Part shown: piece after piece, positions 53 to 20,050 of the stretch
Position numbering within the stretch: the stretch's first letter is position 1
How the letters are laid out: every line of letters starts with the position of its first letter
Assembly: GCA_964496765.1 (NCBI GenBank)
Contig: CAZCAP010000007.1
Coordinates: 17,759-37,808, forward strand
Direction: 5' to 3'
Source: an uncultured archaeon
GTDB lineage: Archaea > Iainarchaeota > Iainarchaeia > Iainarchaeales > CSSED10-239
DNA: 20,050 nt
The notes under the pieces: generated by a model
Seen by the model: only the letters and a program-made list of their open reading frames with translations
Told to the model about the DNA's origin: nothing
The model's database searches: none
Position numbers and translations under genes: made by a program

Positions 53-727
53 ATGATAAAGATAGATAACTATTATAAGTTTGTAGGATCCAGTTTTGGA
101 CTTGCATACTTTATTGGGCTAACAATTGCATTAATATATATTCTACTTGGAGCAAGCTATCCAGTTCCTGAAAGCTTTACTGGTTCTCTTCATCTAACTT
201 CTCAGATTTATTTTAAAACAACCTATTTGGAGATGTCAAACACTTCTTTTAATTTAGCAATAATACCTTTTTCCTATCTAATTGAAGCAGTTAACTATGG
301 TTTCACACACATGGTGCTATTGACCTCATCCTTTTTAGGGCAAATCAAATTATTTGTTCAACTACTACCACAACTTCTTTTCTTCTTGAGCTTCATTATA
401 TTCTCAACAATTGGATTAAAAGTAGTACTTTATATAATTAAGAATATTGTTAATTATTTATTACAGAAGAAAGATAAATATAGAAAGCTTGAATTAAAAA
501 TATTTTCAAAGGATGATATTATTTTTTGTTTTATAGGAATACTGAGTCTGTTGGTTGGAACCCTATTTCAATTAAAGCTAATTAAGATTATGTTTATATT
601 TTTAATTAATTTCAAAGCAATTACGTTTGTATTAATTTTATTATTGTATATTATTTTAATTTTAATTTCTGGATATACTTTGTATAATCTTGGATTTGAC
701 GTTTATAATGAATTAAATAAAAAATAA
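53..727 (+). CDS. polytopic membrane protein, unknown function
   Basis: 224-aa ORF with several long hydrophobic segments (FGLAYFIGLTIALIYILLG, LLFFLSFIIFSTIGLKVVLYII, ITFVLILLLYIILILISGY). It stops 14 nt before the same-strand ATPase gene, which suggests an operon. Confidence 0.6.
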   Translation: MIKIDNYYKFVGSSFGLAYFIGLTIALIYILLGASYPVPESFTGSLHLTSQIYFKTTYLEMSNTSFNLAIIPFSYLIEAVNYGFTHMVLLTSSFLGQIKLFVQLLPQLLFFLSFIIFSTIGLKVVLYIIKNIVNYLLQKKDKYRKLELKIFSKDDIIFCFIGILSLLVGTLFQLKLIKIMFIFLINFKAITFVLILLLYIILILISGYTLYNLGFDVYNELNKK

Positions 728-741
728 ATTAGGAATTAAAA

Positions 742-2037
742 ATGGGAATTGATTTTAAAGAAGAAGATGTCATAGTTGGAAGATCACAAAATCAGATTGA
801 TAAGTATGGGTCTAAGGGAACAGGATATATTGGTAAGGTTGTTGTTTCTGCTGGTGATGATCCAGTTCTTGGTAAAAAAGTATTAATGGATTTATCAAAA
901 TCACATGTTATGATTATTTGCGGAAAAAGGGGTGGGGGAAAATCGTACAGCACATCAGTAATTATTGAAGAATTCTGCAAACAACCCTTCGACATTAAAG
1001 AAAGATTATCAGTTATTGTTATTGATACTGTTGGTATATTCTGGACAATGAAGTATGCAAACAAGGGAGAAGATGAAAGTCTTTCAAAATGGGATCTTAA
1101 GGCAGAAGGAGTAGATATTAGAAACATGATTCCTTTTGGTAAACAAGATTTCTATAGAGAAAAAAATATTCCATTCGATATCCCTTTTTCAATTAGAACA
1201 TCACAGATGGATTTAGAAGATTGGCTTGGAATGTTTCGTTTAAGCTGGAAAGATCCAGAAACATCTCTTCTTTCAAGAACAATGGAAGCAATCAGAGAAA
1301 AGGTTGGAACACTCTATGATATTGATGATATTATGAAGGTCGCATTAAAAGATGAAGAAACAACAATTGATGTTAAAAATTCACTGGTTAATAGATTAAA
1401 GGTTGCTAAGGGCTGGGGACTATTTTCAAAACAAGGAACAACTACTAAAGAGTTTGCAAGACCAGCAACAATTACTGTTATTGATGTTTCAACCTACAAA
1501 CAAACAATTGGAATGGAAGCAGTTTCTGAACTCATTGTTGGATTGCTTGGAAAAAGATTATACGAAGAAAGAATGCTCTATAGAAAGGAAGAAGAAATGA
1601 ATCTTCTATCTGGAAAAAAGAAAGAAAGTGAAATGCCTATTATTTGGATGATGATTGATGAGGCACACATGTTCATGCCCCAGGATAGACCAAGTATGGC
1701 TCTAGATGTTCTTCTCCAATGGATTAGGGTTGGTAGACAACCAGGACTTTCTTTACTTCTTGCAACCCAGAGACCAAACAAGCTCCATTCAGAAGCAATT
1801 TCCCAATGTGATCTATTCCTTTCAATGAGAATGACAGCCCAGGAAGACATTAATGCAGTATCTGCAATCAGACCAAGCTATCTAAACTTACCAATAGACA
1901 AATTTTATGCTCAAATGCCAAAATCCCAGGGATATGCTATTCTTCTGGATGATAATTCTGAGAAGATGATGCTAATTAAGATTAGACCAAGATTAACCTG
2001 GGATGGAGGAAAGACCGCAAACGTTTTTGTTGATTAA
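742..2037 (+). CDS. HerA/FtsK-like P-loop ATPase (DUF87-type)
   Basis: 431-aa ORF. Walker A is CGKRGGGKSYS. The Walker B-like motif WMMIDEAHMF is followed by LLLATQRPNKL, as in HerA/FtsK-clade ATPases. Family assignment is from motif memory only. Confidence 0.75.
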   Translation: MGIDFKEEDVIVGRSQNQIDKYGSKGTGYIGKVVVSAGDDPVLGKKVLMDLSKSHVMIICGKRGGGKSYSTSVIIEEFCKQPFDIKERLSVIVIDTVGIFWTMKYANKGEDESLSKWDLKAEGVDIRNMIPFGKQDFYREKNIPFDIPFSIRTSQMDLEDWLGMFRLSWKDPETSLLSRTMEAIREKVGTLYDIDDIMKVALKDEETTIDVKNSLVNRLKVAKGWGLFSKQGTTTKEFARPATITVIDVSTYKQTIGMEAVSELIVGLLGKRLYEERMLYRKEEEMNLLSGKKKESEMPIIWMMIDEAHMFMPQDRPSMALDVLLQWIRVGRQPGLSLLLATQRPNKLHSEAISQCDLFLSMRMTAQEDINAVSAIRPSYLNLPIDKFYAQMPKSQGYAILLDDNSEKMMLIKIRPRLTWDGGKTANVFVD

Positions 2038-5838: not shown

Positions 5839-8475
5839 TCAAGATTCAATTACCCAAAATCTTTTTTTATTGTTTATTGCTTTTAGGATATCAAAAATTA
5901 TAATGAATAGGAATCCAACCCCGATTGCAACCAACCAAGAAGTTATTCCTAAAGGAATGGTTCCAAAAAGCTTATTTAGAGGAGTATAGATAATTGCAAT
6001 TGTTGCTAAAATAGATATTAAAGATGCAAAGAAAAGATATTTGTTTGTAACTAAAGATCTTCTGAATACGCCTTTCCTGAATGATCTATAAATAAAAGCA
6101 CCTAATATTTCAAGTAGGATTAAAGTTAATAGAGCTGTTGTGGTTGCATGAATTGCATCAAATCCAAGAACATTAAAAGTAACATAATAGACTATTAATG
6201 TAAATCCTGCAATTATTATACTTGAAAATAAAAGTAAAAATATTAGATTCTTGGTTAATATATTTCTTTTTTTTGGTCTCTCATCCATAATATCATTTGA
6301 GGAAGGATTAAAACCAAGAGCAATGGCTGGTAGATTATCAGTAACTATATTCATAAACAATATTTGTAAAGGTAGAAGAATTGGTATTGGCCATCCTAGG
6401 CTTGTGGCTAAAATCACACCAAAAATAATTATAAATAATTCTGCAAAATTACAGGACAATTGATAGGTCATAAACTTTCTTAGGTTTGCAAAGATAGTTC
6501 TTCCTTCTTTAACAGCAGTAACTATGGTTGCGAAATTATCATCCTTTAATGTTAGATCTGCAACAGATCTTGAAACATCAGTACCAGTTTTGCCCATTGC
6601 AACCCCAACATGTGCTTCCTTTAATGCAGGAGCATCATTTACCCCGTCTCCTGTCATAGTAACAACTTCACCATGGGCTTTGAGTGCTTTAACTATCCTT
6701 AGCTTATGCTCTGGTCTTACTCTTGCAAAAACAACAACATTTTGTATGATTTTGAATAGTTCATCATCGGTTAATGCATCCATTTCATTACCATCAATCA
6801 CCTCACCATCTAATATTCCAATTTCTTTTGCAATGGCTGTTGCTGTTTCCTTGTTATCTCCAGTAATCATCTTTATTTTTATTCCTGCTTTTTTACAAAA
6901 CAAGATTGTTTCTTTAACTTCTTCTCTTGGAGGGTCTTCCATTCCCACAAATCCAATAAATATTAAATCAGATTCTAGATTTTTACTATCTATTTGATAT
7001 GCAAAGCCTAGTGTTCTTAGTGCTTTTTTTGTCATGTTCCTATTGTTTTCTAGGATTTCATCTTTATCTTTCTTAGTTAACTTTGAAACCCTACCATTTC
7101 TATGAATAGATGTACAATGATTTAATAGAACCTCAACAGCACCCTTAACATAAACTGTTTTTGTGTTTTTTTCTAAAACAAGAACATTCATCATTTTTCT
7201 TTCTGAACTAAACGGAATTTCATTCTCTCTAATAACTTCGAAATCATCTTTGAATATTTCAACCTTTGAAGCAAGGATTAGAAGTGCTGCTTCTGTTGGT
7301 GTTCCGGATATTTTATAACTTAAATCATCTTCAACTTTTCTAATTATTGCATCATTACAAAGAACTGATGATTTTAAGATCAAAGATAATTCTTTATTTT
7401 TATTTAAATCTATTTTTTTATTGTTAAGCAGGATTTCTCCTTTACTTTCAAAACCAATTCCAGTAACATCATATAAATTATTATTTGCAAAAACAGTTTT
7501 TACGGTCATCTCTCCCTTTGTTATGGTTCCAGTTTTATCTGAACAGATAACAGTTGTTTCTCCAAGTGTTTCAATAATTGACATTCTGCTTACAATTGCA
7601 TTTTTTTTTGCCATTCTATAAGCTCCAGAAGATAGGGTAGTAATTAGAACCACTGGTAGGCCTTCAGGAAATGCAGAAACTGAAATTGCAATAACTAAAA
7701 TAATAACATCCACAATAATTGCTTTTGTAATGAAAGGGGTTTTTAATAAAACTAGTACACCAGTTAATACTGCAAGAGACAGAGCAATAAAAGCCATTGT
7801 CTTTGTAATCTTATTTATTTTATCCTGAAGAGGGAGTTCCTTTTCTGCAGATGAAATCATACCTGCAATCTCACCAAACTTTGTGTTCATTCCTGTGTGT
7901 GTAACCTTCACAATACATTTACCACTAACTATGAATGAACCCATATAAACTTTATTTTCATCAACATAGTTTTCTTTATCTTTAGAAACTAGTTTTTTAA
8001 TTTCTTTTGATTCACCAGTTAGAATAGCTTCATTAACTAATAAATTGTTTTCTGATAAAATAACTGCATCAGCAGGAATTCTTTCACCTGTTCTTAATAT
8101 TAGAATATCTCCAGGAACAATTTCTGAGGATAGTATTTCTTTTTCTTTTGAATCCCTAATAACTAAGGTATTTGGTACTATCATTCTCTTAAGTGCAGAC
8201 ACTGCTTTTTCTGCTTTATATTCTTGAATAAATCCAGCACCCACAACAAGTACAATTACTCCAATAATTGTATAGGCAGTTACTGATTTTCCAACTATAA
8301 ATGAGAGAATGGTTGCACAAAGTAATAGATAAACAATGAAATTATTTTTAACTTGTCTTAGAAGAATAGTTAACAGAGATACTTTATTAACATCAACAAT
8401 TTCATTTAAACCAAATGTAGTTAAATTTTGTTTTGCTTCCTGTGCAGTAAGTCCATTATATAGCATAAATATCAA
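5839..8475 (-). CDS. P-type cation-transporting ATPase (P2/Ca2+-type-like)
   Basis: 878-aa ORF with the motifs TGES (LTGESKEI), the phosphorylation site ICSDKTGTIT, MITGDN and the hinge TGDGVNDAPALK, plus N- and C-terminal TM bundles. Confidence 0.9.
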   Translation of the reverse strand: MIFMLYNGLTAQEAKQNLTTFGLNEIVDVNKVSLLTILLRQVKNNFIVYLLLCATILSFIVGKSVTAYTIIGVIVLVVGAGFIQEYKAEKAVSALKRMIVPNTLVIRDSKEKEILSSEIVPGDILILRTGERIPADAVILSENNLLVNEAILTGESKEIKKLVSKDKENYVDENKVYMGSFIVSGKCIVKVTHTGMNTKFGEIAGMISSAEKELPLQDKINKITKTMAFIALSLAVLTGVLVLLKTPFITKAIIVDVIILVIAISVSAFPEGLPVVLITTLSSGAYRMAKKNAIVSRMSIIETLGETTVICSDKTGTITKGEMTVKTVFANNNLYDVTGIGFESKGEILLNNKKIDLNKNKELSLILKSSVLCNDAIIRKVEDDLSYKISGTPTEAALLILASKVEIFKDDFEVIRENEIPFSSERKMMNVLVLEKNTKTVYVKGAVEVLLNHCTSIHRNGRVSKLTKKDKDEILENNRNMTKKALRTLGFAYQIDSKNLESDLIFIGFVGMEDPPREEVKETILFCKKAGIKIKMITGDNKETATAIAKEIGILDGEVIDGNEMDALTDDELFKIIQNVVVFARVRPEHKLRIVKALKAHGEVVTMTGDGVNDAPALKEAHVGVAMGKTGTDVSRSVADLTLKDDNFATIVTAVKEGRTIFANLRKFMTYQLSCNFAELFIIIFGVILATSLGWPIPILLPLQILFMNIVTDNLPAIALGFNPSSNDIMDERPKKRNILTKNLIFLLLFSSIIIAGFTLIVYYVTFNVLGFDAIHATTTALLTLILLEILGAFIYRSFRKGVFRRSLVTNKYLFFASLISILATIAIIYTPLNKLFGTIPLGITSWLVAIGVGFLFIIIFDILKAINNKKRFWVIES

Positions 8476-8632
8476 ATATATTTTAAGTATATAATCTTAT
8501 ATATATGGCTTTATAAATATATAGATTACTAATAAAATAAATCAACTCCATCTCCATATATTTATATTATTATCACATCATATTCTATTATCCGCATCCA
8601 AACAAAGCTTGCTGGGTAATATTTTAAATTAA

Positions 8633-9814
8633 GTGATAAAAATGGGATTTACTAATTTTTTTAAAAAAATAATACGGAAAGAACCAACTGTTGAATATAA
8701 GCCAACTATCAAAGAATTAACTTTCAATGAAATTAAGGATTTAATTAAAAATAAGGAGACAGAAATTAATACTAGGGAAAAGGAAGTTTTTGTTTTAATT
8801 AAAAATAGAGCAAGCTCATTTGTTAGAGATATAAATCACAAAGTTAGAAATTTAGAAAGCACAGATGTCGAATCAAAGGACACCAATGAGAGAATAAAAT
8901 CAATTGTAAAAACAAATTTAAATAAGTATATAGAGCACGTGAAAAAACTTATAGAAGAAATAGATAACCTGAATGAAGATAATTTTGAACATTTTATTAA
9001 ATGGGTAAATAATCTCTTCATTGATTTTGAAAAAAAGTCCTATGTTAATTATCACAGAGCTGTTTTCTTGATAGGGCAAGATTTAATTGACATCAGAAAG
9101 AACATAGCTGACTTTTCTAAATCTTTAATAAGCATATTAGATAAAAACAAAGAAATAATAGGATCTTCTCGTCAGATTCATGCAATTCAACAAAAAATAA
9201 AACAAGTCTTTGAAGCCAATGAAGTTATTAAAGGATTTGATGAAAGAATTAATTTATTAAATGACAAAACAAAAGATCTAGAAAAAATTAATCAAACTCT
9301 GGATAATAAAATTAAAGAAATTAAAGAAAATAAAAGTCATAAAGAAAATATAAGACATAAAGAAAAAATAAAGGAAACAGAAAAAAATTTAAAAGAAGAA
9401 ATACATGAATTTAAAGGATTAATTGACTTTAAAGAATTAGGTAATATATTTCATAGTGAAGAGAAAAAAACAAAAATAATAAGAGCCTATAAAGAAAGGT
9501 TTGAAGAAACCTATTTAGAAGATAATGGAGCAAGCATTCTTCTCCTTCTTGATGAAGCAAAACTAAACACTAGTGGAATCTCACTTAAAATAAAGCAAAT
9601 CAACACTAAAAGAGAAGAACTAATTGTGCAGGAGTCAACCATTAAAAAAGACGAAACAGAAGATTTGTTAATTGAAATTAATAAAATCAAACTAGAAATT
9701 GAAAAACTAAAAACCGAAAAAGACGATGATTTAAAGAAAAGTGAAAAAATTAAACAACAAAGAGAAAAGATAATAAGTTCAATAAAACAAGAGTTAGCAA
9801 AAATGAACAAATAG
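8633..9814 (+). CDS. long coiled-coil protein, unknown function
   Basis: K/E/I/N-rich heptad-like sequence throughout. The track ORF starts at GTG 8633, but the ATG at 8642 (MGFTNFF) is the more likely start. Confidence 0.55.
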   Translation: MIKMGFTNFFKKIIRKEPTVEYKPTIKELTFNEIKDLIKNKETEINTREKEVFVLIKNRASSFVRDINHKVRNLESTDVESKDTNERIKSIVKTNLNKYIEHVKKLIEEIDNLNEDNFEHFIKWVNNLFIDFEKKSYVNYHRAVFLIGQDLIDIRKNIADFSKSLISILDKNKEIIGSSRQIHAIQQKIKQVFEANEVIKGFDERINLLNDKTKDLEKINQTLDNKIKEIKENKSHKENIRHKEKIKETEKNLKEEIHEFKGLIDFKELGNIFHSEEKKTKIIRAYKERFEETYLEDNGASILLLLDEAKLNTSGISLKIKQINTKREELIVQESTIKKDETEDLLIEINKIKLEIEKLKTEKDDDLKKSEKIKQQREKIISSIKQELAKMNK

Positions 9815-9822
9815 TTTATCAA

Positions 9823-10599
9823 TTACCTATTGATTTTATGTACATCAACACCAAATAGTTTAAGTTTAAAATATTTTTGTAATTCAATTCCGGTTTTGTT
9901 AATTTTAAGATTTATTTGCCAATTTTCTATGCCTTTTTTTGCAGCCTGCTTTGCCGCTGTTCTTACAACATTATTTGTATTATCTGATTTTGGAGGAGTA
10001 AATGCAGGTGCATCATAAATGAATGCTAAAAGAACAATTGCTCTGTGATTCTTAATATCTGTAGATAGATCATTAAAATGTTTAATTAGTCTATCAAAAG
10101 AATTAAATTTGGTTTTTGGCTTTTGTAAAATAAAATCAGATTTTGAGTTTTCAAAAGGGAAAGAAATGAGAGGCATCTTAACTTCAAGATAGGTGTTATC
10201 AATTAGGAAATCAATTCTAGAGTTACCTAACCTTTTTTCTCTGGATATATTTTTTCCTGTTATCATTTTAGGCAAACAATTATTTTTTATAAAAAATTCA
10301 ACATAGACATTTATTTTTGTTTGATTTATTCCTATCCAAGTCTTATTTTTTCTACTAATTGAATCAAGAGAAATAGCTTCAACCGTGTATCTTGTTTTTC
10401 TATTAAGATTATCACTTTCAGAAAGAAGACAAGGAACATCAGAAAAATGAATTTCACCAATTCTACCAGTAACTGGACAGTGACATTTGAAAACCCCATT
10501 GCTTATTTGAACATTCATTATAAATCTATTTGGTCTAGATTTTATAACACCTTCAATAAGGGGTTTTTGAAATTTATATATTAAACTCATAGTAAACAA
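9823..10599 (-). CDS. sfsA: SfsA-family protein (sugar fermentation stimulation protein homologue, nuclease-fold)
   Basis: The N-terminal LIEGVIKSRPNRFIMNV matches the remembered SfsA start (..R.KRF...V). The size of about 250 aa and the later RIDFLI...YLEVK segment are also typical. Confidence 0.65.
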   Translation of the reverse strand: MFTMSLIYKFQKPLIEGVIKSRPNRFIMNVQISNGVFKCHCPVTGRIGEIHFSDVPCLLSESDNLNRKTRYTVEAISLDSISRKNKTWIGINQTKINVYVEFFIKNNCLPKMITGKNISREKRLGNSRIDFLIDNTYLEVKMPLISFPFENSKSDFILQKPKTKFNSFDRLIKHFNDLSTDIKNHRAIVLLAFIYDAPAFTPPKSDNTNNVVRTAAKQAAKKGIENWQINLKINKTGIELQKYFKLKLFGVDVHKINR

Positions 10600-10630
10600 A
10601 CCTAAAAGAAAATAAAAAGTAGTTAGAAAA

Positions 10631-10828
10631 CTACTTTTTAAAAACCTTTATTAGTGGTACAATTACAAATAGAATGAATAATATTAGATAATAATACCAA
10701 TCTAAAGACAGAATTACTGGCCATAATTTTGCTAGCATAAGAGCAAAGAAAAGAACTGATAATTTCACCAAAGATATGTCATACCAATGCATAGTTTTTA
10801 TTTTGTCATCAAAAGATTTAAAACACAT
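10631..10828 (-). CDS. small two-helix membrane protein
   Basis: 65-aa ORF with two hydrophobic helices. This is the last chromosomal gene before the left att repeat. Confidence 0.4.
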   Translation of the reverse strand: MCFKSFDDKIKTMHWYDISLVKLSVLFFALMLAKLWPVILSLDWYYYLILFILFVIVPLIKVFKK

Positions 10829-10960: not shown

Positions 10961-11251
10961 TTATATAGGATAGTGTTTAAAGCCACTTACAGCAAACTGC
11001 TGACCAGAATTAGAGATGCCTCGAACCAGATTTGGACTGGCGGTCTCCAGATTATGAGTCTGACTTTGACAAGCGTAAGCTGTGTGTAGTGTATAGTCTG
11101 TAGAACCACTGAACAAAGCAACCTTCAACAATTGCCTAACCATTTTAGATATATTAATATGCTTAGCTTTCAAATAATCATACGTATGTTTATCTAAATT
11201 TATTTCAATTCTCTTTAATTCTTGCTCAGATTCAATCTTTTTTTCGGTCAA
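10961..11251 (-). CDS. integrase N-terminal fragment int(N), RHH-like, reading through the att repeat
   Basis: 96-aa ORF. RIEINLDKHTYDYLKAKHINISKMVRQLLKVAL has a strand-helix-helix (ribbon-helix-helix) look. The C-terminal QTHNLETASPNLVRGISNSGQQFAVSGFK is the att sequence translated in the same frame as at the right end. Only the last 4 codons (HYPI) are chromosomal. Confidence 0.8.
   Translation of the reverse strand: MTEKKIESEQELKRIEINLDKHTYDYLKAKHINISKMVRQLLKVALFSGSTDYTLHTAYACQSQTHNLETASPNLVRGISNSGQQFAVSGFKHYPI
10974..11062. repeat. left att repeat (partial tRNA-Met 3' copy plus 43-bp flank)
   Basis: Identical at 89/89 positions to 19957..20045 in a base-by-base comparison. Positions 11017..11062 duplicate the tRNA 3' 46 nt. 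The sequence beyond 11062 is not tRNA-like. Confidence 0.95.
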
Positions 11252-12670: not shown

Positions 12671-14245
12671 ATGTGTGGATATATGATTGAAGAAGATAGT
12701 ACTAAATTCTTACTAAGAAGAATGGGTGAGCTTAACAAAGATGGGGCATTAGATAGAAAGTTTGAACAAGAACGATTCGAAAGGGAAGCACTTACAATTA
12801 CTAAAAGAAATGAAAGAGGCTTATCCGATTGGGGAATTGGATATCCATTGGAAGAAGATGGCAGATATTCTATGATAGTCCCTCAATTACAAGATTGGAA
12901 GATGCTACAAGAGAAGTATCTTAAAGACAAGCCACTCCTCTTTGACAATCAACAGATATGGTGGGCTTGGAATCCTAAAGATTGTTGCTGGCAACCTACT
13001 GATGAAACAAGCATATTACTTAATTTTGACCAATCTATTACATTATCTGACCAGCACAACAGCATACAACCTCTTACAAAAAATATAATTTTAGAAGCAC
13101 TTAAACGAGCATCCAGAAAAAATTATGATGAAATAAAACCTATAGAAAAAACATGGGTCGTATTTAAAGATACTATTGTAGATTTGTCTCAAAGTTTAGC
13201 ATTCCCAAATAATCCTAAGTATTTTGCAACTAATGTTATTCCTCAAAATGTTTTAAATTTACAATCCACAGAAACGCCAGTAATAGATAGATTGTTTAGA
13301 GAATGGGTTGGAAATAAATACGTTCCAACACTTTATGAAATTATTGCATATTCAATGTTATCTGATTATCCAATCCATAGACTATTTTGTTTGATTGGCT
13401 CAGGTCGAAATGGAAAATCTACTTTCATTAACTTATTATTAAATTTTATAGGTAATCCAAATAGCACATCTGTTGAATTGGAAACGCTGACAAATAATCC
13501 TTTTACATCCTCAAAGTTATACAAAAAATTAATCTGTCTTGTAGGAGAAACAAACTTTAATTTACTTAGGAATACAGAGATTATTAAAAAATTAACAGGT
13601 CAAGACCCTATCCCTGCTCAATTTAAGCATAAGGGGTTATTTGATTTTAAAAACTTTGCTAAAATAATAATTGCAACAAACTCCTTACCTCAATCCCTTG
13701 ATAAGACTGGTGGATTCTATTCCAGATGGCAAATAATCGATTTTCCAAATCGATTTTCAGAAGTAAAAGATGTTTTAGCTGATATCTCAGAACAAGAATA
13801 TGAAAACTTAGCAAGAAAATGTATTCTTATCCTACAAAAGTTATTAGTAACCAGAAAGTTTACTAATGAAGGAACATTAGAACAGAGAATGCAAATTTAT
13901 GAAGATAAAGCTAATCCTTTACAAAAATTCATTAGAGAATATTATGATTACAATAGTCAAGAATATGTGATTGGATTCGAATTTTATAATCTATTTAGTT
14001 ATTTCTTGAAGAATAATGGAAGTAGGGCATTATCAAGAATAATAGTTACACAAATGCTAAGGGAAGAAGGTATTGAACCAAAAAAAGAGAGAGTAGATTT
14101 TAAAGGGGAAGAAAAGCAATGGGTTGTTTATTGGGGATTGAAATTAAAAAACAAGAATCAAGAGGGATTAAATAAATATATTAACACTACAGAAAATAAT
14201 AAAGAAAAAGTGGGTGATATAAATGCAGGACTTCAAGAATCTTAG
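12671..14245 (+). CDS. SF3 helicase, D5 / P4-primase C-terminal family (replication protein)
   Basis: Walker A in the typical context LFCLIGSGRNGKSTFINLLLNFIG. Walker B-like KKLICLVGE. Motif C-like IIATNSLP. The upstream W-rich region (IWWAWNPKDCCWQPTD) resembles the D5_N linker. No primase catalytic motif was seen. Confidence 0.75.
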   Translation: MCGYMIEEDSTKFLLRRMGELNKDGALDRKFEQERFEREALTITKRNERGLSDWGIGYPLEEDGRYSMIVPQLQDWKMLQEKYLKDKPLLFDNQQIWWAWNPKDCCWQPTDETSILLNFDQSITLSDQHNSIQPLTKNIILEALKRASRKNYDEIKPIEKTWVVFKDTIVDLSQSLAFPNNPKYFATNVIPQNVLNLQSTETPVIDRLFREWVGNKYVPTLYEIIAYSMLSDYPIHRLFCLIGSGRNGKSTFINLLLNFIGNPNSTSVELETLTNNPFTSSKLYKKLICLVGETNFNLLRNTEIIKKLTGQDPIPAQFKHKGLFDFKNFAKIIIATNSLPQSLDKTGGFYSRWQIIDFPNRFSEVKDVLADISEQEYENLARKCILILQKLLVTRKFTNEGTLEQRMQIYEDKANPLQKFIREYYDYNSQEYVIGFEFYNLFSYFLKNNGSRALSRIIVTQMLREEGIEPKKERVDFKGEEKQWVVYWGLKLKNKNQEGLNKYINTTENNKEKVGDINAGLQES

Positions 14246-14573
14246 ATTGTGGCAGTTAGCCAGAGAGTTTGTTAGTGATATATATAAGCTAACAACCACC
14301 TTCCCAAGCCACGAGCTCCACTCTATGACTAACCAGCTCAGAAGAGCAAGTTACAGCATACCCTCAAACATAGCGGAAGGCTCTGGAAAAGGTAGCCAAA
14401 AGGAATTTAAGAGATATTTAAGTATAGTTAGTGGCTCAATAAAAGAGGTAGAATGTTTTTTAATATTAGCAAGGGACTTGAACTACATCAATGAACAACA
14501 ACTGACTGAACTTACCCAAAAGTTAGAAATTATTGGAAAGATGAATAGTAAGTTAACAAATAAATTATACTGA
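14223..14573 (+). CDS. four-helix-bundle protein (23S rRNA intervening-sequence / Avd-like family)
   Basis: FKNLRLWQLAREF...LRRASYSIPSNIAEGSGKGSQKEFKRYLSIVSGSIKEVECFLILARDL matches the remembered family consensus (W..A......IY..T..FP..E...L..Q.RRA..SI..NIAEG.....KE...FL.IA.GS..E). It overlaps the helicase 3' end by 23 nt. Confidence 0.8.
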   Translation: MQDFKNLRLWQLAREFVSDIYKLTTTFPSHELHSMTNQLRRASYSIPSNIAEGSGKGSQKEFKRYLSIVSGSIKEVECFLILARDLNYINEQQLTELTQKLEIIGKMNSKLTNKLY

Positions 14574-15710
14574 ATCTTTAGATTCATTAATCTGTGATTT
14601 TATTTTAGGATAATTGTTAACAAAACTATCTTCTCCGAACCAGTGGCTAACTTTTTCAAATAAATTACAAGCCATTTCATCTAAATTAGAATAGTCTTTA
14701 CAGTCGATACCCTCTATTATATAATTTATATCTATCCCAATTAATTTATTTTGATTAGGTAAAATTATGTTTTCAGGATTAACAAAACCAATTTTAAGAG
14801 ATATTTGCGGATTCCTATTAATCTTTTTATAATAACTTCTATAGGATTTTAAAAAGAAACCTAATGATATATACATTGCATCAGAATCCAATTTATATTT
14901 ATTAGATGGGGTTGTTTGCGGAATTGTTCTTATCAATAATAACTCACCTTTATCTAAAAAAGATATGATGCCATTATCACCCATTCTTTTAAATTTGATT
15001 TTTACTCCAAAATAATCTTTATTATAATCTGACAACTCAAACCCACCATTTATAGATGATGTCATGATTCTAATTATCTCAGAACTCAAAAGAAAATTAT
15101 CCATTTCAAAAGCAGGTTGAATAAGAAAAAAGAAAGAAGGACTTATTCCATTAAATTTTAATATAACATTTTCTAAAATAAATTGTTCTCTTTTTTTCAG
15201 AACTTCTCTTAATTCTAATCTATCTTTATATAGATTATATATTTCTCTTTCAGATAATGGTATATATTTACCTTTTACTTGAGTTGATAAACTTCCTATA
15301 GATGTACCTTCTCGCTTATAATAAATATAATCCTTCAGATGCATATGTGGGGCAAGATTACTTCTTGGGATATCAATAATTAAATAAAATAAATTTTGGT
15401 CATCATCTTTTGAAATTTCATATGTTTCATAAAAAACAGTTCCAGAAATCCCGTTTCTTATCCAATCACTAATTTTTCGTTTATACAAATCTAATTTCGC
15501 TTTATCTATCCCTATTAGTACACCCTTATCAGATACTCCAAAAATAATAGAACCCCCTTTTTCAGAATTTGCAAATCCGGAGACGTATTTCATTATTTTA
15601 GTGTTTGCATCTAAATTTATTAAAAATTGCTCATCTTTATATTCAATATCATCTTGTTCGTCATGCTGTACAATTTGTTTTAAATGTTCAAAATCTTTAA
15701 TATAACTCAT
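14565..15710 (-). CDS. AlbA_2 / Schlafen-core (divergent AAA) domain protein with unknown C-terminal half
   Basis: The N-terminal 140 aa read EQDDIEYKDEQ...IMKYVSGFANSEKGGSIIFGVSDKGVLIGID...YYKREGTS. This fits the AlbA_2 pattern E.K......I.AFAN..GG.I.IGV.D.G...G....R.G..T. The remaining ~230 aa are unrecognised. Confidence 0.7.
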   Translation of the reverse strand: MSYIKDFEHLKQIVQHDEQDDIEYKDEQFLINLDANTKIMKYVSGFANSEKGGSIIFGVSDKGVLIGIDKAKLDLYKRKISDWIRNGISGTVFYETYEISKDDDQNLFYLIIDIPRSNLAPHMHLKDYIYYKREGTSIGSLSTQVKGKYIPLSEREIYNLYKDRLELREVLKKREQFILENVILKFNGISPSFFFLIQPAFEMDNFLLSSEIIRIMTSSINGGFELSDYNKDYFGVKIKFKRMGDNGIISFLDKGELLLIRTIPQTTPSNKYKLDSDAMYISLGFFLKSYRSYYKKINRNPQISLKIGFVNPENIILPNQNKLIGIDINYIIEGIDCKDYSNLDEMACNLFEKVSHWFGEDSFVNNYPKIKSQINESKDSV

Positions 15711-15855: not shown

Positions 15856-17238
15856 TTATAAAAAATTAATTTCTATGAAAATTCTATAATCTTTGATTAA
15901 TGTGTGCGAGGACTTATACACTATAAAACAATTGTAACAATTATTTTTTATAGCATTAATAAGTTTTGATTTATTTTCAAAATTTTTAGCAATATATCCC
16001 AAAAGTTTACCTTCATACAATATTTTGATTGCTGTCGAATCATATTTGTTAGTAGGTTCATATTTTAATATCAAATTACTCTTATCTAAAATTGAATCTA
16101 AATAATTCACGGTTAAATCTCTATATTGAATTCCTTTAATTATAGTTATGTGAGACAATGGTATTCTTTCTGGTGTAATATTATTAATTTTTAATAAAAT
16201 ATATTTAATATTTGATTTAAATTTAATGAATTCATTAAACCAATATTTTTGAAGCACAGATAATTGGTCTGTTTGTGATTTAACTTCTACAAAATATACT
16301 TTATTTTCTTTTTTATTGTATATAAATAAATCAGGCATACCTGCAGTGTGAGTTGCCAAAAAAGTAATGGTTTTATTTGGTAACTTATCAACACATCTTT
16401 TTAATTCATTATCAGAAATAGCTAACGTTGAAAACACATTCTCTAGTGTTTGATTATTGGAAATAACAGAATAAATTGCTAAATATTTATTATTTTTATA
16501 ATATTCAATTGCATAATCTTCTAAATTACATATTTTATTACTGTATTCAACCAGAAATTTACTTCTAAACCATTCTTTGTTTATTCCAACATATTTAATA
16601 GTTATGATTTCAGATTTAATTAATTTTTTATTTTTTTCAAAAGTGTTAAGTATTTCTGCTTCATTTTCAAATTGTATACTAAAATTTAAATCAAAATTAA
16701 TATCTATTTTACCATTATCAAAAGGTAGTTGATTACGTTTTTGTTTAATATTTTCTGTAAATATTAAATTGCCTTTTTTATACTTTTCTTTGATATAATT
16801 TATATCTTTTTCAAGAGTAATTGACTTATCTATAAAATTTTTTCTTTTATTATTTATAACATTCCCAAAATCAGTAATGTACTCAATTTTATCTTCATTA
16901 ATAGGATATTTTTTTACAAATGGTTTAATGGTTATATTTTTTGATTCGTTCTCAATTTTTAGTGATAATTGGTTATTTTGTCTTACTAATACATCTTCTT
17001 GTTCCTGTTGTTGTTTTTGTTTTTCTAATCTGTCTTTTTGCTTTTGCTTTTCAGAGTTTTTATATTTAATAAACTCTTTAATTGATGCAATTAATATTGA
17101 AGGTCCAATAAATATTAACCAAAATAAAACCCAACTGCTGTGGTTTAATCCTACAACTGCACCAATAGTTAACCCAAAGAATAATAATACCAAATATACC
17201 CCGAACATTTCCATATCAATTACCAATTTATTAAACAC
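15856..17238 (-). CDS. membrane-tethered FAN1-like VRR-NUC nuclease fused to a C-terminal HIRAN domain
   Basis: Two N-terminal TM helices are followed by a basic/QK coiled segment. The nuclease motif is HTAGMPDLFIYNKKENKVYFVEVKSQTDQLSVLQKYWFNEF (PD...EVK...Q, VRR-NUC). The C-terminal IKGIQYRD...LILKYEPTNKYDSTAIKILYEGKLLGYIAKN fits HIRAN (L.REP.N.YD..AI.V......GY). Confidence 0.75.
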   Translation of the reverse strand: MFNKLVIDMEMFGVYLVLLFFGLTIGAVVGLNHSSWVLFWLIFIGPSILIASIKEFIKYKNSEKQKQKDRLEKQKQQQEQEDVLVRQNNQLSLKIENESKNITIKPFVKKYPINEDKIEYITDFGNVINNKRKNFIDKSITLEKDINYIKEKYKKGNLIFTENIKQKRNQLPFDNGKIDINFDLNFSIQFENEAEILNTFEKNKKLIKSEIITIKYVGINKEWFRSKFLVEYSNKICNLEDYAIEYYKNNKYLAIYSVISNNQTLENVFSTLAISDNELKRCVDKLPNKTITFLATHTAGMPDLFIYNKKENKVYFVEVKSQTDQLSVLQKYWFNEFIKFKSNIKYILLKINNITPERIPLSHITIIKGIQYRDLTVNYLDSILDKSNLILKYEPTNKYDSTAIKILYEGKLLGYIAKNFENKSKLINAIKNNCYNCFIVYKSSHTLIKDYRIFIEINFL

Positions 17239-17374: not shown

Positions 17375-18487
17375 TTATTGTATTGCAATTACTTTTGAAG
17401 TAGTTGCAATAATATTTTGGTCAGCACCTGTTCTTAAATCCACTTTCAATACATATTGCCCTTCAGATAAAGTTAACAGTCCTTTATTGACATCATTTCT
17501 ATCATAACCAATTAGATAATCTGACTGTGACCCATTATACTGGGCAGGAATTGAATGTAAATCAAAAGGTGCATTTATATCTTTATTTACAATGACCCCT
17601 TCTTTTAAAATAGAAACATCAAAATTTGGATTAGATAATTTGAAAAAACCATTATTTTTAATGTTAATTTTAAAAACTATAAGAACACAATCACCTGATT
17701 CTTCAAAACAACGAGGAGTATAATCTATAATAGACAATTCAACAACAGGATTTGGAGTCATTTCTTTTATTACATTAGATTTAGGAATCTGCTCTTGAAA
17801 TAATTTTATATATGATTTAATATCTTCTTTAATTGGGATAATATCAAAGTTAAAAATAGAGTTAAATAAATCTGTTTGGTCACTAGTATAATTATTTAAT
17901 CGAGTTAATTCAGTATTATTTACTGTAACTGTTTGATTTAAAAGTTCTAACTGTGTATCAATATCTTCAACAGATTCTAATTTATTATAAATTGCATTTA
18001 TATTTTCTGAAAAATTATCTGCACTATAAATAAAATCCACAAATTCTTTGTAAATATCCATATTATAATCATTACTTAATTTAGTTACTGCTTTATTCAT
18101 TTGTTCGACTCTAGTTTTTCTAATATCGTAATTTGTGGTGATATCATAAATATCATTGGATTCAAGATTAATTGAAAGCCATGCTGAAAGCATATCTTTA
18201 TACTCTTTCGTTTCTTCTAATTTTAATTTAACACAAGTATTAATATTTTGATTATTTTGTTGTAATTCTTTACATACAAAAAACGTATCACAAGGAACAT
18301 CCAAACAACAATTTTCTTGTGTTTCTCCTTTTTCTAGGATATTATTTCCACAAATTGCTTTAGAACTCGGTTTGGAAAATTTATCTGCATTGCTTAAACT
18401 ATTAAATAAAATAAATAATATAATTCCAACTAAAATTACAGCCCCAACAATTATACCAATCAATTTTAAATTTTTATTTTTAGCCAC
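17375..18487 (-). CDS. membrane-anchored, Cys-rich extracellular protein
   Basis: The N-terminal anchor is LKLIGIIVGAVILVGIILFILF. It is followed by the cysteine cluster CGNNILEKGETQENCCLDVPCDTFFVC...C and a beta-rich-looking C-terminal domain. Confidence 0.6.
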   Translation of the reverse strand: MAKNKNLKLIGIIVGAVILVGIILFILFNSLSNADKFSKPSSKAICGNNILEKGETQENCCLDVPCDTFFVCKELQQNNQNINTCVKLKLEETKEYKDMLSAWLSINLESNDIYDITTNYDIRKTRVEQMNKAVTKLSNDYNMDIYKEFVDFIYSADNFSENINAIYNKLESVEDIDTQLELLNQTVTVNNTELTRLNNYTSDQTDLFNSIFNFDIIPIKEDIKSYIKLFQEQIPKSNVIKEMTPNPVVELSIIDYTPRCFEESGDCVLIVFKINIKNNGFFKLSNPNFDVSILKEGVIVNKDINAPFDLHSIPAQYNGSQSDYLIGYDRNDVNKGLLTLSEGQYVLKVDLRTGADQNIIATTSKVIAIQ

Positions 18488-19184: not shown

Positions 19185-19856
19185 CTAATTACTAATAAAA
19201 ATATTCAAATAAGCTATTAACTTCTCTGAATAGAACTTATCTGCTAACATCTGTCTTGAAAGATAATGATTACTACCTACTGAATTAGCAGTTCTGCCTT
19301 GATAATAATCTGCTATTGATTCTGGAACCCCTAATTCAATACATTTAGTATAGAACCACTTTCTACAATATTTTATTGGTATTAATTTCTTTCTTTTTAT
19401 TTCTGCTTCTAAGCTTCCTACAGATAATTGCTTGTGGTCTGTGGACAATCTATTATATACTCCCAAAGGTAGATAACAAAAGTAACTATTCTTATTATGT
19501 CTTAGATAGTTCATAGTAATCTTAGTGAATCCATCTAATTGTTGACACTTCAAGCTATCTATTTTTTCTAAAAGATACTCTCCCTCTACTTTTCTTACTC
19601 CTGATACAAGATACATTAGATATATTAGTTTATTTTTAGTAGTTAGTTTGAATAGGGTTTGTTGTATCTCATTATCTGTTGGAACATAAGTATCTTGCTT
19701 TGATGGATTAGAAAAGTTAAGTAGTTTCTTTATAGGTAAGATATCTGTTTCTGTGACTTTATGTTTCTCTTGTAGATATTTCAATAACAAGGATACAAGA
19801 ATAACTGTATATCTTGTTTCTTTTATCTTACTTATGTTCTTCAGTAGATAATCCAT
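19185..19856 (-). CDS. integrase C-terminal catalytic fragment int(C), tyrosine recombinase (SSV-type)
   Basis: The track ORF is 223 aa from an internal ATG. The frame has no stop upstream, through 19857..19956, through the att repeat and on to the window edge. Candidate catalytic residues are SGVRKVEG (Arg), KYCRKWF (xxR), YQGRTANSVGSNHYL (Arg ... Tyr nucleophile). Confidence 0.8.
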   Translation of the reverse strand: MDYLLKNISKIKETRYTVILVSLLLKYLQEKHKVTETDILPIKKLLNFSNPSKQDTYVPTDNEIQQTLFKLTTKNKLIYLMYLVSGVRKVEGEYLLEKIDSLKCQQLDGFTKITMNYLRHNKNSYFCYLPLGVYNRLSTDHKQLSVGSLEAEIKRKKLIPIKYCRKWFYTKCIELGVPESIADYYQGRTANSVGSNHYLSRQMLADKFYSEKLIAYLNIFISN

Positions 19857-19956: not shown

Positions 19957-20045
19957 TGTTTAAAGCCACTTACAGCAAACTGCTGACCAGAATTAGAGAT
20001 GCCTCGAACCAGATTTGGACTGGCGGTCTCCAGATTATGAGTCTG
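19957..20045. repeat. right att repeat, embedded in the intact tRNA-Met gene
   Basis: Identical at 89/89 positions to 10974..11062. It continues at 20046+ into tRNA-like sequence (..AGCGC). Confidence 0.95.
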
Positions 20046-20050
20046 GCGCT
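20000..20050 (-). tRNA. tRNA-Met or Ile2 (anticodon CAU), 3' two-thirds; 5' part lies beyond the window
   Basis: The reverse complement reads AGCG-CCAGA-CTCATAA-TCTGG-AGACC-GCCAG-TCCAAAT-CTGGT-TCGAGGC-A. That gives an anticodon arm with CAT, a 5-nt variable loop, a T arm, the acceptor 3' strand and discriminator A at 20000. It is not initiator-like: there are no three G-C pairs in the anticodon stem. Confidence 0.75.

Follow-up and report, generated by a model that had tools for sequence, protein, structure and literature searches.

The 20,050-nucleotide (nt) stretch of contig CAZCAP010000007.1 analyzed here (the window) carries, at positions 15856 to 17238 on the minus strand, a gene for a 460-amino-acid protein in which a two-helix transmembrane (TM) hairpin, a linker, a VRR-NUC nuclease domain, and a HIRAN domain follow one another in a single chain. 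This target gene lies in a 9.07-kb integrated element. We somewhat favor the view that its product is a membrane-held, DNA-end-directed exclusion or defense nuclease, carried as element cargo and functionally analogous to the bacterial protein SNIPE. The hairpin would hold both termini in the cytoplasm and keep the nuclease off the resident chromosome, about 100 residues away from the membrane's inner face. When linear foreign DNA, such as a virus genome or a transferred plasmid or element, enters through the membrane, the HIRAN domain would capture a free 3′ end of that DNA, or one exposed at a replication intermediate, and the adjacent FAN1-type nuclease would then cut the captured DNA. The outcome would be entry exclusion or defense, to the benefit of both element and host, with self and nonself told apart by membrane location and DNA-end recognition and not by sequence or modification.

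A VRR-NUC nuclease fused to a HIRAN domain

When 1.84 billion representative proteins were scanned exhaustively with HMMER, 30 matched the target protein at an E value of ≤1e-3, 11 of them at ≤1e-10. All clear members have in common a unit made up of a pre-core segment, a VRR-NUC domain, and a HIRAN domain, while their N termini vary. A preliminary description of the gene, made from the sequence alone, had proposed a FAN1-like VRR-NUC domain fused to HIRAN, and both parts of that proposal are borne out by Pfam or profile searches and by the folds found with Foldseek in the AlphaFold2 model of the protein. The model has a mean predicted local distance difference test score (pLDDT) of 80.4 and lies mostly above 90 from residue 190 onward.

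The nuclease domain (amino acids 239 to 353; 16180 to 16524, minus strand), first noticed as a PD-(D/E)xK core close to the FAN1/VRR-NUC signature, matches Pfam VRR-NUC (PF08774) over amino acids 271 to 342 with 39.9 bits against a cutoff of 23.8 (E = 4.8e-10). FAN1 is its best match among solved structures both by sequence, with a profile of the closest homologues (E = 7e-6), and by fold (Foldseek E = 8.7e-6, probability 1.0). The local alignments to FAN1 span 80 to 98 columns at a root mean square deviation of 2.2 to 4.6 Å, mostly below 3 Å, and the nuclease region of the model has a pLDDT above 90. In a 13-member family alignment, K320, D324, Q330, and W333 are invariant and E240, G300, P302, D303, E318, and S321 are conserved in at least 90% of the sequences; the predicted catalytic residues (E240, D303, E318, K320, and Q330) are all intact in the target. 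Pairwise alignment places D303, E318, and K320 on the PD...ExK motif of FAN1 (GLPDL...VEVK...Q), at residues that we take to be D960, E975, and K977 of that enzyme. Q330 corresponds to the conserved VRR-NUC glutamine, which contacts the catalytic lysine (PMC4103454). Since the catalytic residues are intact and conserved throughout the family, the nuclease is very probably active.

The HIRAN domain (amino acids 361 to 460; 15859 to 16158, minus strand) scores below the Pfam cutoff when the target is scanned alone (PF08797, amino acids 369 to 419, 20.3 bits against 24.7). Eight of the nine VRR-NUC-HIRAN homologues scanned (P0005 to P0010, P0031, and the open reading frame [ORF] on L006) pass that cutoff with 27.7 to 42.6 bits, and P0004, with 23.6 bits, falls just under it. 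A profile built from the HIRAN segments of the family matches the solved structures of lp_0118 (E = 1.8e-7) and HLTF (E = 1.1e-6 to 1.6e-6), and Foldseek matches the model to the HLTF HIRAN domain (E = 3.4e-5; TM-score on the target, 0.57 to 0.61) and to lp_0118 (TM-score, 0.71). Because the homologues pass the cutoff, the family profile matches HIRAN domains in the PDB, and the predicted fold agrees, the identity of the C-terminal module, described before as HIRAN-like, can be considered secure at the level of profile and modeled fold despite the low score of the target itself. In HLTF, D94 recognizes the 3′-OH, and Y72 and Y93 pinch the two terminal bases (PMC5773155). By profile alignment, Y72, Y93, and D94 of HLTF are Y372, Y399, and D400 of the target. 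D400 is invariant, position 372 is Y, F, or H in all members, and 10 of 11 have an aromatic residue or His at position 399; the putative 3′-end pocket is conserved in the HIRAN domains of the family.

Upstream of the nuclease lies a family-conserved pre-core (amino acids 170 to 238; 16525 to 16731, minus strand), which opens at an invariant LP motif (171 to 172), continues as a helix (193 to 206) and a β-hairpin (207 to 238), and leads into the first helix of the nuclease. L171, P172, I196, F200, and I207 are invariant among close homologues, identity between two-TM orthologues is 41 to 44%, and pLDDT exceeds 84 over most of the segment, with a weaker block of 10 residues at amino acids 181 to 190 (mean, 61). 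Together with the segments described below, it accounts for the roughly 190 residues that had been left without assignment in the preliminary description. That region is present as described and can now be divided into a stalk reaching to about residue 99, a low-confidence part (99 to 164), and the pre-core.

The target protein belongs to the VRR-NUC and HIRAN domain families and is neither a FAN1 orthologue nor a SNIPE homologue. An identical protein (P0001) is encoded on seven metagenome or metagenome-assembled genome (MAG) contigs. The ORF as called opens with GTG and ends with the stop codon at 15856 to 15858. In-frame ATGs follow at codons 9 and 11 after the called GTG (17208 to 17238, minus strand), a stretch containing GGT is found a few bases upstream, and a TTTAAATA box lies about 34 to 41 nt upstream of the GTG in the region examined, which reached to about 17279. 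One of the ATGs may be the genuine start, and the first TM segment is kept either way.

The membrane hairpin and its predicted topology

The two N-terminal TM helices proposed earlier appear both in the hydropathy profile and in the model. The hairpin (amino acids 12 to 53; 17080 to 17205, minus strand) consists of TM1 (12 to 31), a four-residue loop (NHSS), and TM2 (36 to 53). Kyte-Doolittle averages over 19 residues peak at 2.39 and 2.07 in the two segments, and their maximum anywhere outside the N terminus is 0.6. AlphaFold2 models the segments as a helical hairpin (pLDDT, 81 to 85) in which TM2 runs on as a single helix from residue 36 to about residue 99. The part of this helix beyond the membrane forms a lysine-rich stalk (amino acids 54 to 99; 16942 to 17079, minus strand) that includes the QKQKQK sequence, and it is followed by a poorly conserved, net-positive linker (amino acids 100 to 169; 16732 to 16941, minus strand), modeled with a pLDDT below 50 at amino acids 99 to 164.

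The net charge is −1 in the N-terminal tail, 0 in the loop, +4 in the first 20 residues past TM2, and +10 over amino acids 54 to 169. The linker, stalk included, is long, lysine rich, and net positive in all three full-length two-TM orthologues. Its earlier description as strongly basic therefore holds as to sign, although "strongly" was somewhat overstated. Because the positive charge follows TM2, the positive-inside rule favors a topology in which both termini, and with them the nuclease and HIRAN domains, would be cytoplasmic; as previously suggested, the charge distribution speaks for a C-terminal part inside and not outside the cell.

Among the three full-length two-TM orthologues, which include those of L022 and L023, the hairpin is 38 to 47% identical, the VRR-NUC and HIRAN domains are 47 to 56% identical, and the linker is 17 to 25% identical. 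In L022 and L023 the hairpin is conserved about as well as the catalytic core, and a motif can be written for it (FFG.xIGAxVG...S.xLFWxIFxGP). It is better described as a small family of its own, common to P0012, P0015, L022, and L005, than as a member of Pfam 2TM (PF13239), to which it matches with 15.5 bits (E = 0.019).

Such conservation, with GxxxG-like and GP motifs, exceeds what a passive anchor needs, and it invites a different explanation, namely, that the protein is an abortive-infection or addiction effector. It might be a latent membrane-held toxin that is released or activated upon infection or element loss and degrades the DNA of its own cell, or the hairpin might oligomerize and damage the membrane while the DNA-binding domains serve as a sensor. 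Two-TM modules act as membrane-disrupting effectors in other conflict systems, and the marginal match to Pfam 2TM points the same way, but that score lies well under the cutoff of 24.8. SNIPE without its TM segment is highly toxic through cleavage of self DNA (bioRxiv 10.1101/2025.11.03.685801), and PIN/RelB toxin-antitoxin genes adjoin one homologue of the target. Against this, no antitoxin or immunity gene is conserved beside the family in the neighborhoods examined, and the invariant catalytic residues speak against a purely sensory nuclease domain. We consider an effector of this kind unlikely.

A tRNA-integrated element and the exchange of its nuclease gene

That the gene is element cargo, as first proposed, is confirmed by two perfect direct repeats of 89 nt, which lie 8,983 nt apart and bound the 9.07-kb element at a tRNA-Met gene, and by an integrase gene within the same element. 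The repeat, a presumptive attachment (att) site, combines the 3′ part of tRNA-Met(CAT) with the 43 nt that follow it. It was found in a longer contig, L001, which holds the intact tRNA-Met(CAT) gene; this gene runs past the right edge of the window, with 20000 to 20050 inside it. Copy 1 maps to 19957 to 20045 (minus strand), and copy 2, at the distal end of the element, maps to 10974 to 11062 (minus strand). Within the window, 45 nt of the repeat were found again where chance predicts 0 matches. The integrase (19185 to 19856, minus strand) matches the Pfam family "Archaeal phage integrase" (PF16795, E = 4.4e-28) and a PHROG integrase family (E = 3.9e-34). The element is probably archaeal, given the family of this integrase and the presence of relatives of the nuclease in archaeal MAGs.

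A sister of this element was found on L013 (1 to 17691, 17.7 kb; Logan SRR8925820). It has the same gene order, and its proteins are 80% (integrase), 83% (winged helix-turn-helix [HTH]), 60% (SLFN_AlbA_2), and 82% (23S-rRNA-IVP/bAvd-like [IVP]) identical to those of the window's element. L013 lacks a VRR-NUC/HIRAN gene and has instead, in the same HTH-to-SLFN interval as the target gene, a gene (7039 to 8535) for P0015, a protein that ends in Mrr_cat, the Mrr-type restriction endonuclease domain. P0015 and a second protein of this type, P0012, match the target over the two-TM hairpin and coiled coil only (E = 7e-5 and 7e-6, respectively, in the whole library). By tblastn, this similarity amounts to 41% identity over 75 amino acids and 50% over 36 amino acids, and both proteins have Mrr_cat at the C terminus (E = 2e-33 and 6e-32). 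These proteins have a membrane hairpin and coiled-coil N terminus homologous to that of the target, and P0015 occupies the equivalent slot, whereas the C-terminal effector is of the Mrr type in place of VRR-NUC plus HIRAN. A word-index search with the hairpin profile returned only a 63-amino-acid ORF on L005 and added no effector beyond Mrr_cat. L013 also carries a second HTH_45 gene; its contig begins within the integrase gene and ends close to the att-proximal ORF, which fits an assembly interrupted at the att repeats.

A variable slot in related elements is thus filled by one or another membrane-anchored PD-(D/E)xK nuclease, which is the pattern expected of accessory conflict genes and not of element-replication genes. 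This bears directly on the possibility that the protein processes the DNA of its own element by resolving or trimming replication, recombination, or transfer intermediates (flaps, stalled forks, or junctions), possibly at a membrane site. The domains as such would suit that role. Bacteria and phages have stand-alone VRR-NUC proteins that resolve Holliday junctions, and 5′ flaps are cut by FAN1 (PMC4103454), HIRAN binds 3′ ends at stalled forks (PMC5773155), and HIRAN has been linked to the replication machinery of caudate phages and, together with VRR-NUC, to bacterial selfish elements (PMC6222260). The element moreover has its own primase/helicase. Yet L013 shares the backbone and does without a VRR-NUC/HIRAN gene, so the protein is not needed for the life cycle of this element family. 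Homologues occur with unrelated backbones or outside recognizable elements, beside restriction-modification genes, and it is not obvious what a membrane tether would contribute to such processing; together, these points make this explanation improbable, and we rank it after the effector reading.

The remaining genes of the element include a DUF5906 primase/helicase-type replication protein (12671 to 14245, plus strand; Pfam E = 1.4e-18, PHROG "DNA primase" E = 2.4e-47), the IVP-type four-helix-bundle gene (14223 to 14573, plus strand; E = 1e-36), a SLFN_AlbA_2 protein downstream of the target gene (14565 to 15710, minus strand; Pfam E = 9.5e-17), a small winged-helix gene, and ORFs of no recognized family. 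The IVP gene converges on the SLFN_AlbA_2 gene, and the two overlap by 9 nt at the 3′ end of the latter, an arrangement that is the same in L013. The upstream neighbor of the target gene (17375 to 18487, minus strand) encodes a protein of 370 amino acids in which an N-terminal TM helix precedes a segment containing Cys and a large domain; it has no match in Pfam, PHROG, or PADLOC and no counterpart in L013, and the element may use it as a surface protein. Neither neighbor qualifies as a dedicated partner of the nuclease: SLFN_AlbA_2 is a backbone gene that also stands beside the Mrr variant, and the 370-amino-acid protein lacks a counterpart elsewhere. Inside the element, no genes for a capsid or for packaging were recognized. 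A 96-amino-acid ORF (10961 to 11251, minus strand) with a weak CcdA-like match (E = 0.0046) crosses the distal att repeat, so that tRNA-derived sequence encodes the 3′ end of the ORF. The ORF may not be a genuine gene, or integration may have created or changed it.

Outside the element, the window holds an unannotated 224-amino-acid ORF (53 to 727, plus strand) followed by a gene for a HerA/FtsK-type ATPase (742 to 2037, plus strand; DUF87, E = 1.8e-9). The ATPase weakly resembles NCBIfam models named "anti-phage-associated helicase HerA" (E = 3e-15, far under the cutoffs of these models), and the two genes may form a defense-like pair.

Variation of the N terminus and neighborhoods of the homologues

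Membrane anchoring recurs in the family in several forms. Full-length two-TM fusions represent three lineages, namely, the target, L022 (453 amino acids), and L023 and L006 (427 amino acids). A single TM helix precedes the nuclease in P0009, P0010, and P0031, and a weak one, under the hydropathy threshold, in P0008. Several TM helices and an acidic linker are present in P0005 and in the protein of L024, whereas P0004, P0006, and P0014 begin with nonmembrane domains. The gene call of P0003 had hidden its anchor, the actual ORF being one of 427 amino acids with a hydrophobic N terminus. On L005, a 63-amino-acid two-TM ORF (539 to 730) and a 322-amino-acid nuclease ORF (932 to 1900) are separate, but the near-identical L022 has a single ORF of 453 amino acids (521 to 1882). 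We therefore rejected a two-component version of the system; the split in L005 probably reflects a frameshift or an error of assembly within the low-complexity linker, which is rich in lysine and asparagine. The L024 protein (8420 to 10828 of LFCJ01001199.1) is 802 amino acids long, with a multi-TM N terminus and very acidic linkers. This composition suggests a halophilic host, so other archaeal lineages may also have members of the family.

Relatives come from a Nanoarchaeota MAG and from a MAG labeled "archaeon." A scan of the GTDB species representatives gave no match with the single protein as the query and, with an alignment as the query, only the Nanoarchaeota contig that was already known. 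In the BFVD collection of viral folds, matches cover one domain at a time, either HIRAN or VRR-NUC.

None of the homologues examined sits in a housekeeping operon; they are found on mobile islands or have restriction-modification, toxin-antitoxin, or candidate defense genes as neighbors. L005 and L022 have an HKD-plus-Snf2 helicase and a type IIG restriction-methylase nearby. On L007, an N6-methyltransferase/HATPase gene shares the operon, and RtcR-CARF and FRG genes are near. The Nanoarchaeota MAG contig (L008) has an ArdC-N/M78 anti-restriction-type gene, L015 has HsdM and the PIN/RelB pair mentioned above, and L016 has a 1,059-amino-acid AAA_22 NTPase. L023 combines a PD-(D/E)xK nuclease, a MazG-like protein, and an SLFN-g3/DUF2075-type helicase (PADLOC PDC-S41/AbiO/Nhi-like), and L024 combines a C5 DNA methylase and a PDC-M33A homologue. 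In L019 to L021, an island of integrase, RmuC, a 254-amino-acid gene, and P0006 is flanked by genes that differ from contig to contig. The island (L019, 7142 to 13462; L020, 6986 to 13306; L021, 1397 to 7717) comes from the same ENA study as the window and comprises an AEP-TOTE/tyrosine integrase, RmuC, the 254-amino-acid gene, the TM-less P0006, and three ORFs without an assigned family. The changing flanks suggest that the nuclease core has a second mobile carrier.

The same distribution makes it very improbable that the protein serves DNA uptake or nucleotide salvage, as a membrane-held nuclease degrading imported DNA in an archaeon with a reduced (DPANN-type) genome: membrane-associated nucleases do share in DNA uptake in some bacteria, one relative stems from a Nanoarchaeota MAG, and the host proteins of the window are very divergent from curated families (all NCBIfam matches being far under the cutoffs), but the family is extremely rare and sits on accessory elements and islands, where a core salvage function would look otherwise, and uptake-machinery genes are not among the neighbors of the target.

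Discussion

The closest functional parallel to the proposed exclusion or defense nuclease is SNIPE of E. coli, an inner membrane protein composed of a TM anchor, a DNA-binding DUF4041 domain, and a GIY-YIG nuclease (Saxton et al., bioRxiv 10.1101/2025.11.03.685801). SNIPE cuts phage DNA during injection, and its membrane localization prevents self-cleavage; its homologues have zero, one, or two TM helices and highly variable N termini with a conserved nuclease (bioRxiv 10.1101/2025.11.03.685801). Like SNIPE, the target is a single chain with a predicted N-terminal TM anchor, a long linker, a DNA-binding domain, and a nuclease in the C-terminal half that is predicted to be cytoplasmic. In both families the number of TM helices and the N termini vary, and both are found in defense or mobile contexts. 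The two are not homologous, however. The target has no Pfam match to DUF4041 or GIY-YIG and uses VRR-NUC and HIRAN instead, its nuclease precedes the DNA binder, its DNA-binding module is a predicted 3′-end reader, and its lineage is probably archaeal. SNIPE, in addition, has ManYZ and the tape-measure protein as partners. With SNIPE as an experimental precedent in bacteria, the earlier idea of a defense nuclease held at the membrane is less unprecedented than it seemed.

The comparison with FAN1 is instructive in another way. FAN1 is the closest solved relative of the nuclease domain by sequence and by fold, and the PD...ExK...Q motif is common to both, but orthology was rejected since UBZ, SAP, and TPR domains are missing; the target has no match to FAN1_TPR, which is present in P0017, a true FAN1-like protein. 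A helical insertion between β1 and β2 blocks dimerization in FAN1, while stand-alone resolvases are compact and dimeric (PMC4103454). In the target, about 60 residues separate E240 from D303, and the model has short helices at 268 to 296, at the position described for the FAN1 insertion. In the model, this spacing resembles the inserted, monomeric form of FAN1 more than the compact dimeric resolvases. Stand-alone phage and bacterial VRR-NUC resolvases such as PDB entry 4QBN belong to the same Pfam family and have the same catalytic core, but 4QBN is a much weaker Foldseek match than FAN1 (E = 0.095 versus 8.7e-6). Moreover, these resolvases are dimers of about 100 amino acids, whereas the target has additional conserved elements at its N-terminal side, a HIRAN domain, and a TM anchor. 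HIRAN and VRR-NUC also occur together in plant FAN1-like proteins (PMC5704218). The target differs from them and from FAN1 itself in that its HIRAN domain is C terminal to the nuclease, it is membrane anchored, and it is encoded by a mobile element. With the HIRAN domains of HLTF and Rad5 and with the stand-alone bacterial lp_0118, it shares the fold, the motifs GLRY...NxYDxxAIKV...GY, and the residues of the 3′-OH pocket; in contrast to HLTF and Rad5, its HIRAN domain is fused to a nuclease and a membrane tether, with no SNF2 translocase or ubiquitin ligase.

Membrane localization, as in Zorya, Kiwa, and SNIPE, and DNA-end sensing, as in Shedu and Ppl, have been described as separate principles of self/nonself discrimination; Ppl detects 3′-OH ends, and Shedu uses a PD-(D/E)xK nuclease behind N-terminal domains that vary (PMC12904381). 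The likeness of the target to Shedu and Ppl is conceptual and consists in the recognition of DNA ends as a way to target linear invader DNA. In the target, this recognition would be by HIRAN (of the 3′-OH), in combination with a membrane anchor, and no homology to the Shedu models in PADLOC was found. We would tentatively go a step further, and with less conviction than for the defense function itself, and regard the protein as a possible counterpart of SNIPE that evolved independently, probably in archaea (DPANN-associated). Such a protein would destroy incoming linear DNA by means of two self/nonself filters in one chain, namely, membrane location and the reading of a free 3′ end by HIRAN, and its hairpin would be a portable membrane-targeting adaptor that mobile elements swap between PD-(D/E)xK nucleases (VRR-NUC/HIRAN or Mrr).

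Several observations weigh against a membrane-held defense nuclease. P0004, P0006, and P0014 have no TM segment, and membrane anchoring is therefore not obligatory for the nuclease core. The predicted topology draws on hydropathy and charge. The defense role is inferred through guilt by association in about nine neighborhoods, and a scan of the target against PADLOC-DB v2 gave only a marginal match in the HIRAN region (PDC-M03B, E = 0.0013, 16.4 bits). No member of the family was found on IMG/VR viral contigs, where the only match (L014) was to the generic VRR-NUC core. As for the element, its mobility is deduced from its structure, and JGI metagenome contigs contained no unoccupied att site, although an exact match was required, which makes this weak evidence.

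As to novelty, the pairing of HIRAN and VRR-NUC has already been described, in plant FAN1-like proteins (PMC5704218) and in a discussion of its provenance from selfish elements (PMC6222260). What appears to be new is the membrane-anchored form, its recurrence in a rare family, the swappable two-TM module, and the carriage on tRNA-integrating, probably archaeal elements.

If the proposed function is correct, the principle of cutting invader DNA at the membrane would extend from SNIPE to an unrelated architecture, probably in archaea. HIRAN would add a DNA-end reader as a second discrimination step, and a concrete role in defense would be gained for prokaryotic HIRAN domains. The protein is a compact, single-gene candidate, easy to mutate, in which D303/E318/K320, D400/Y372, and the TM anchor could be used to separate the role of location from that of DNA-end recognition. 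More broadly, our findings draw attention to a small family of elements that integrate at tRNA genes in poorly known archaea and swap membrane-anchored nucleases among themselves as cargo.

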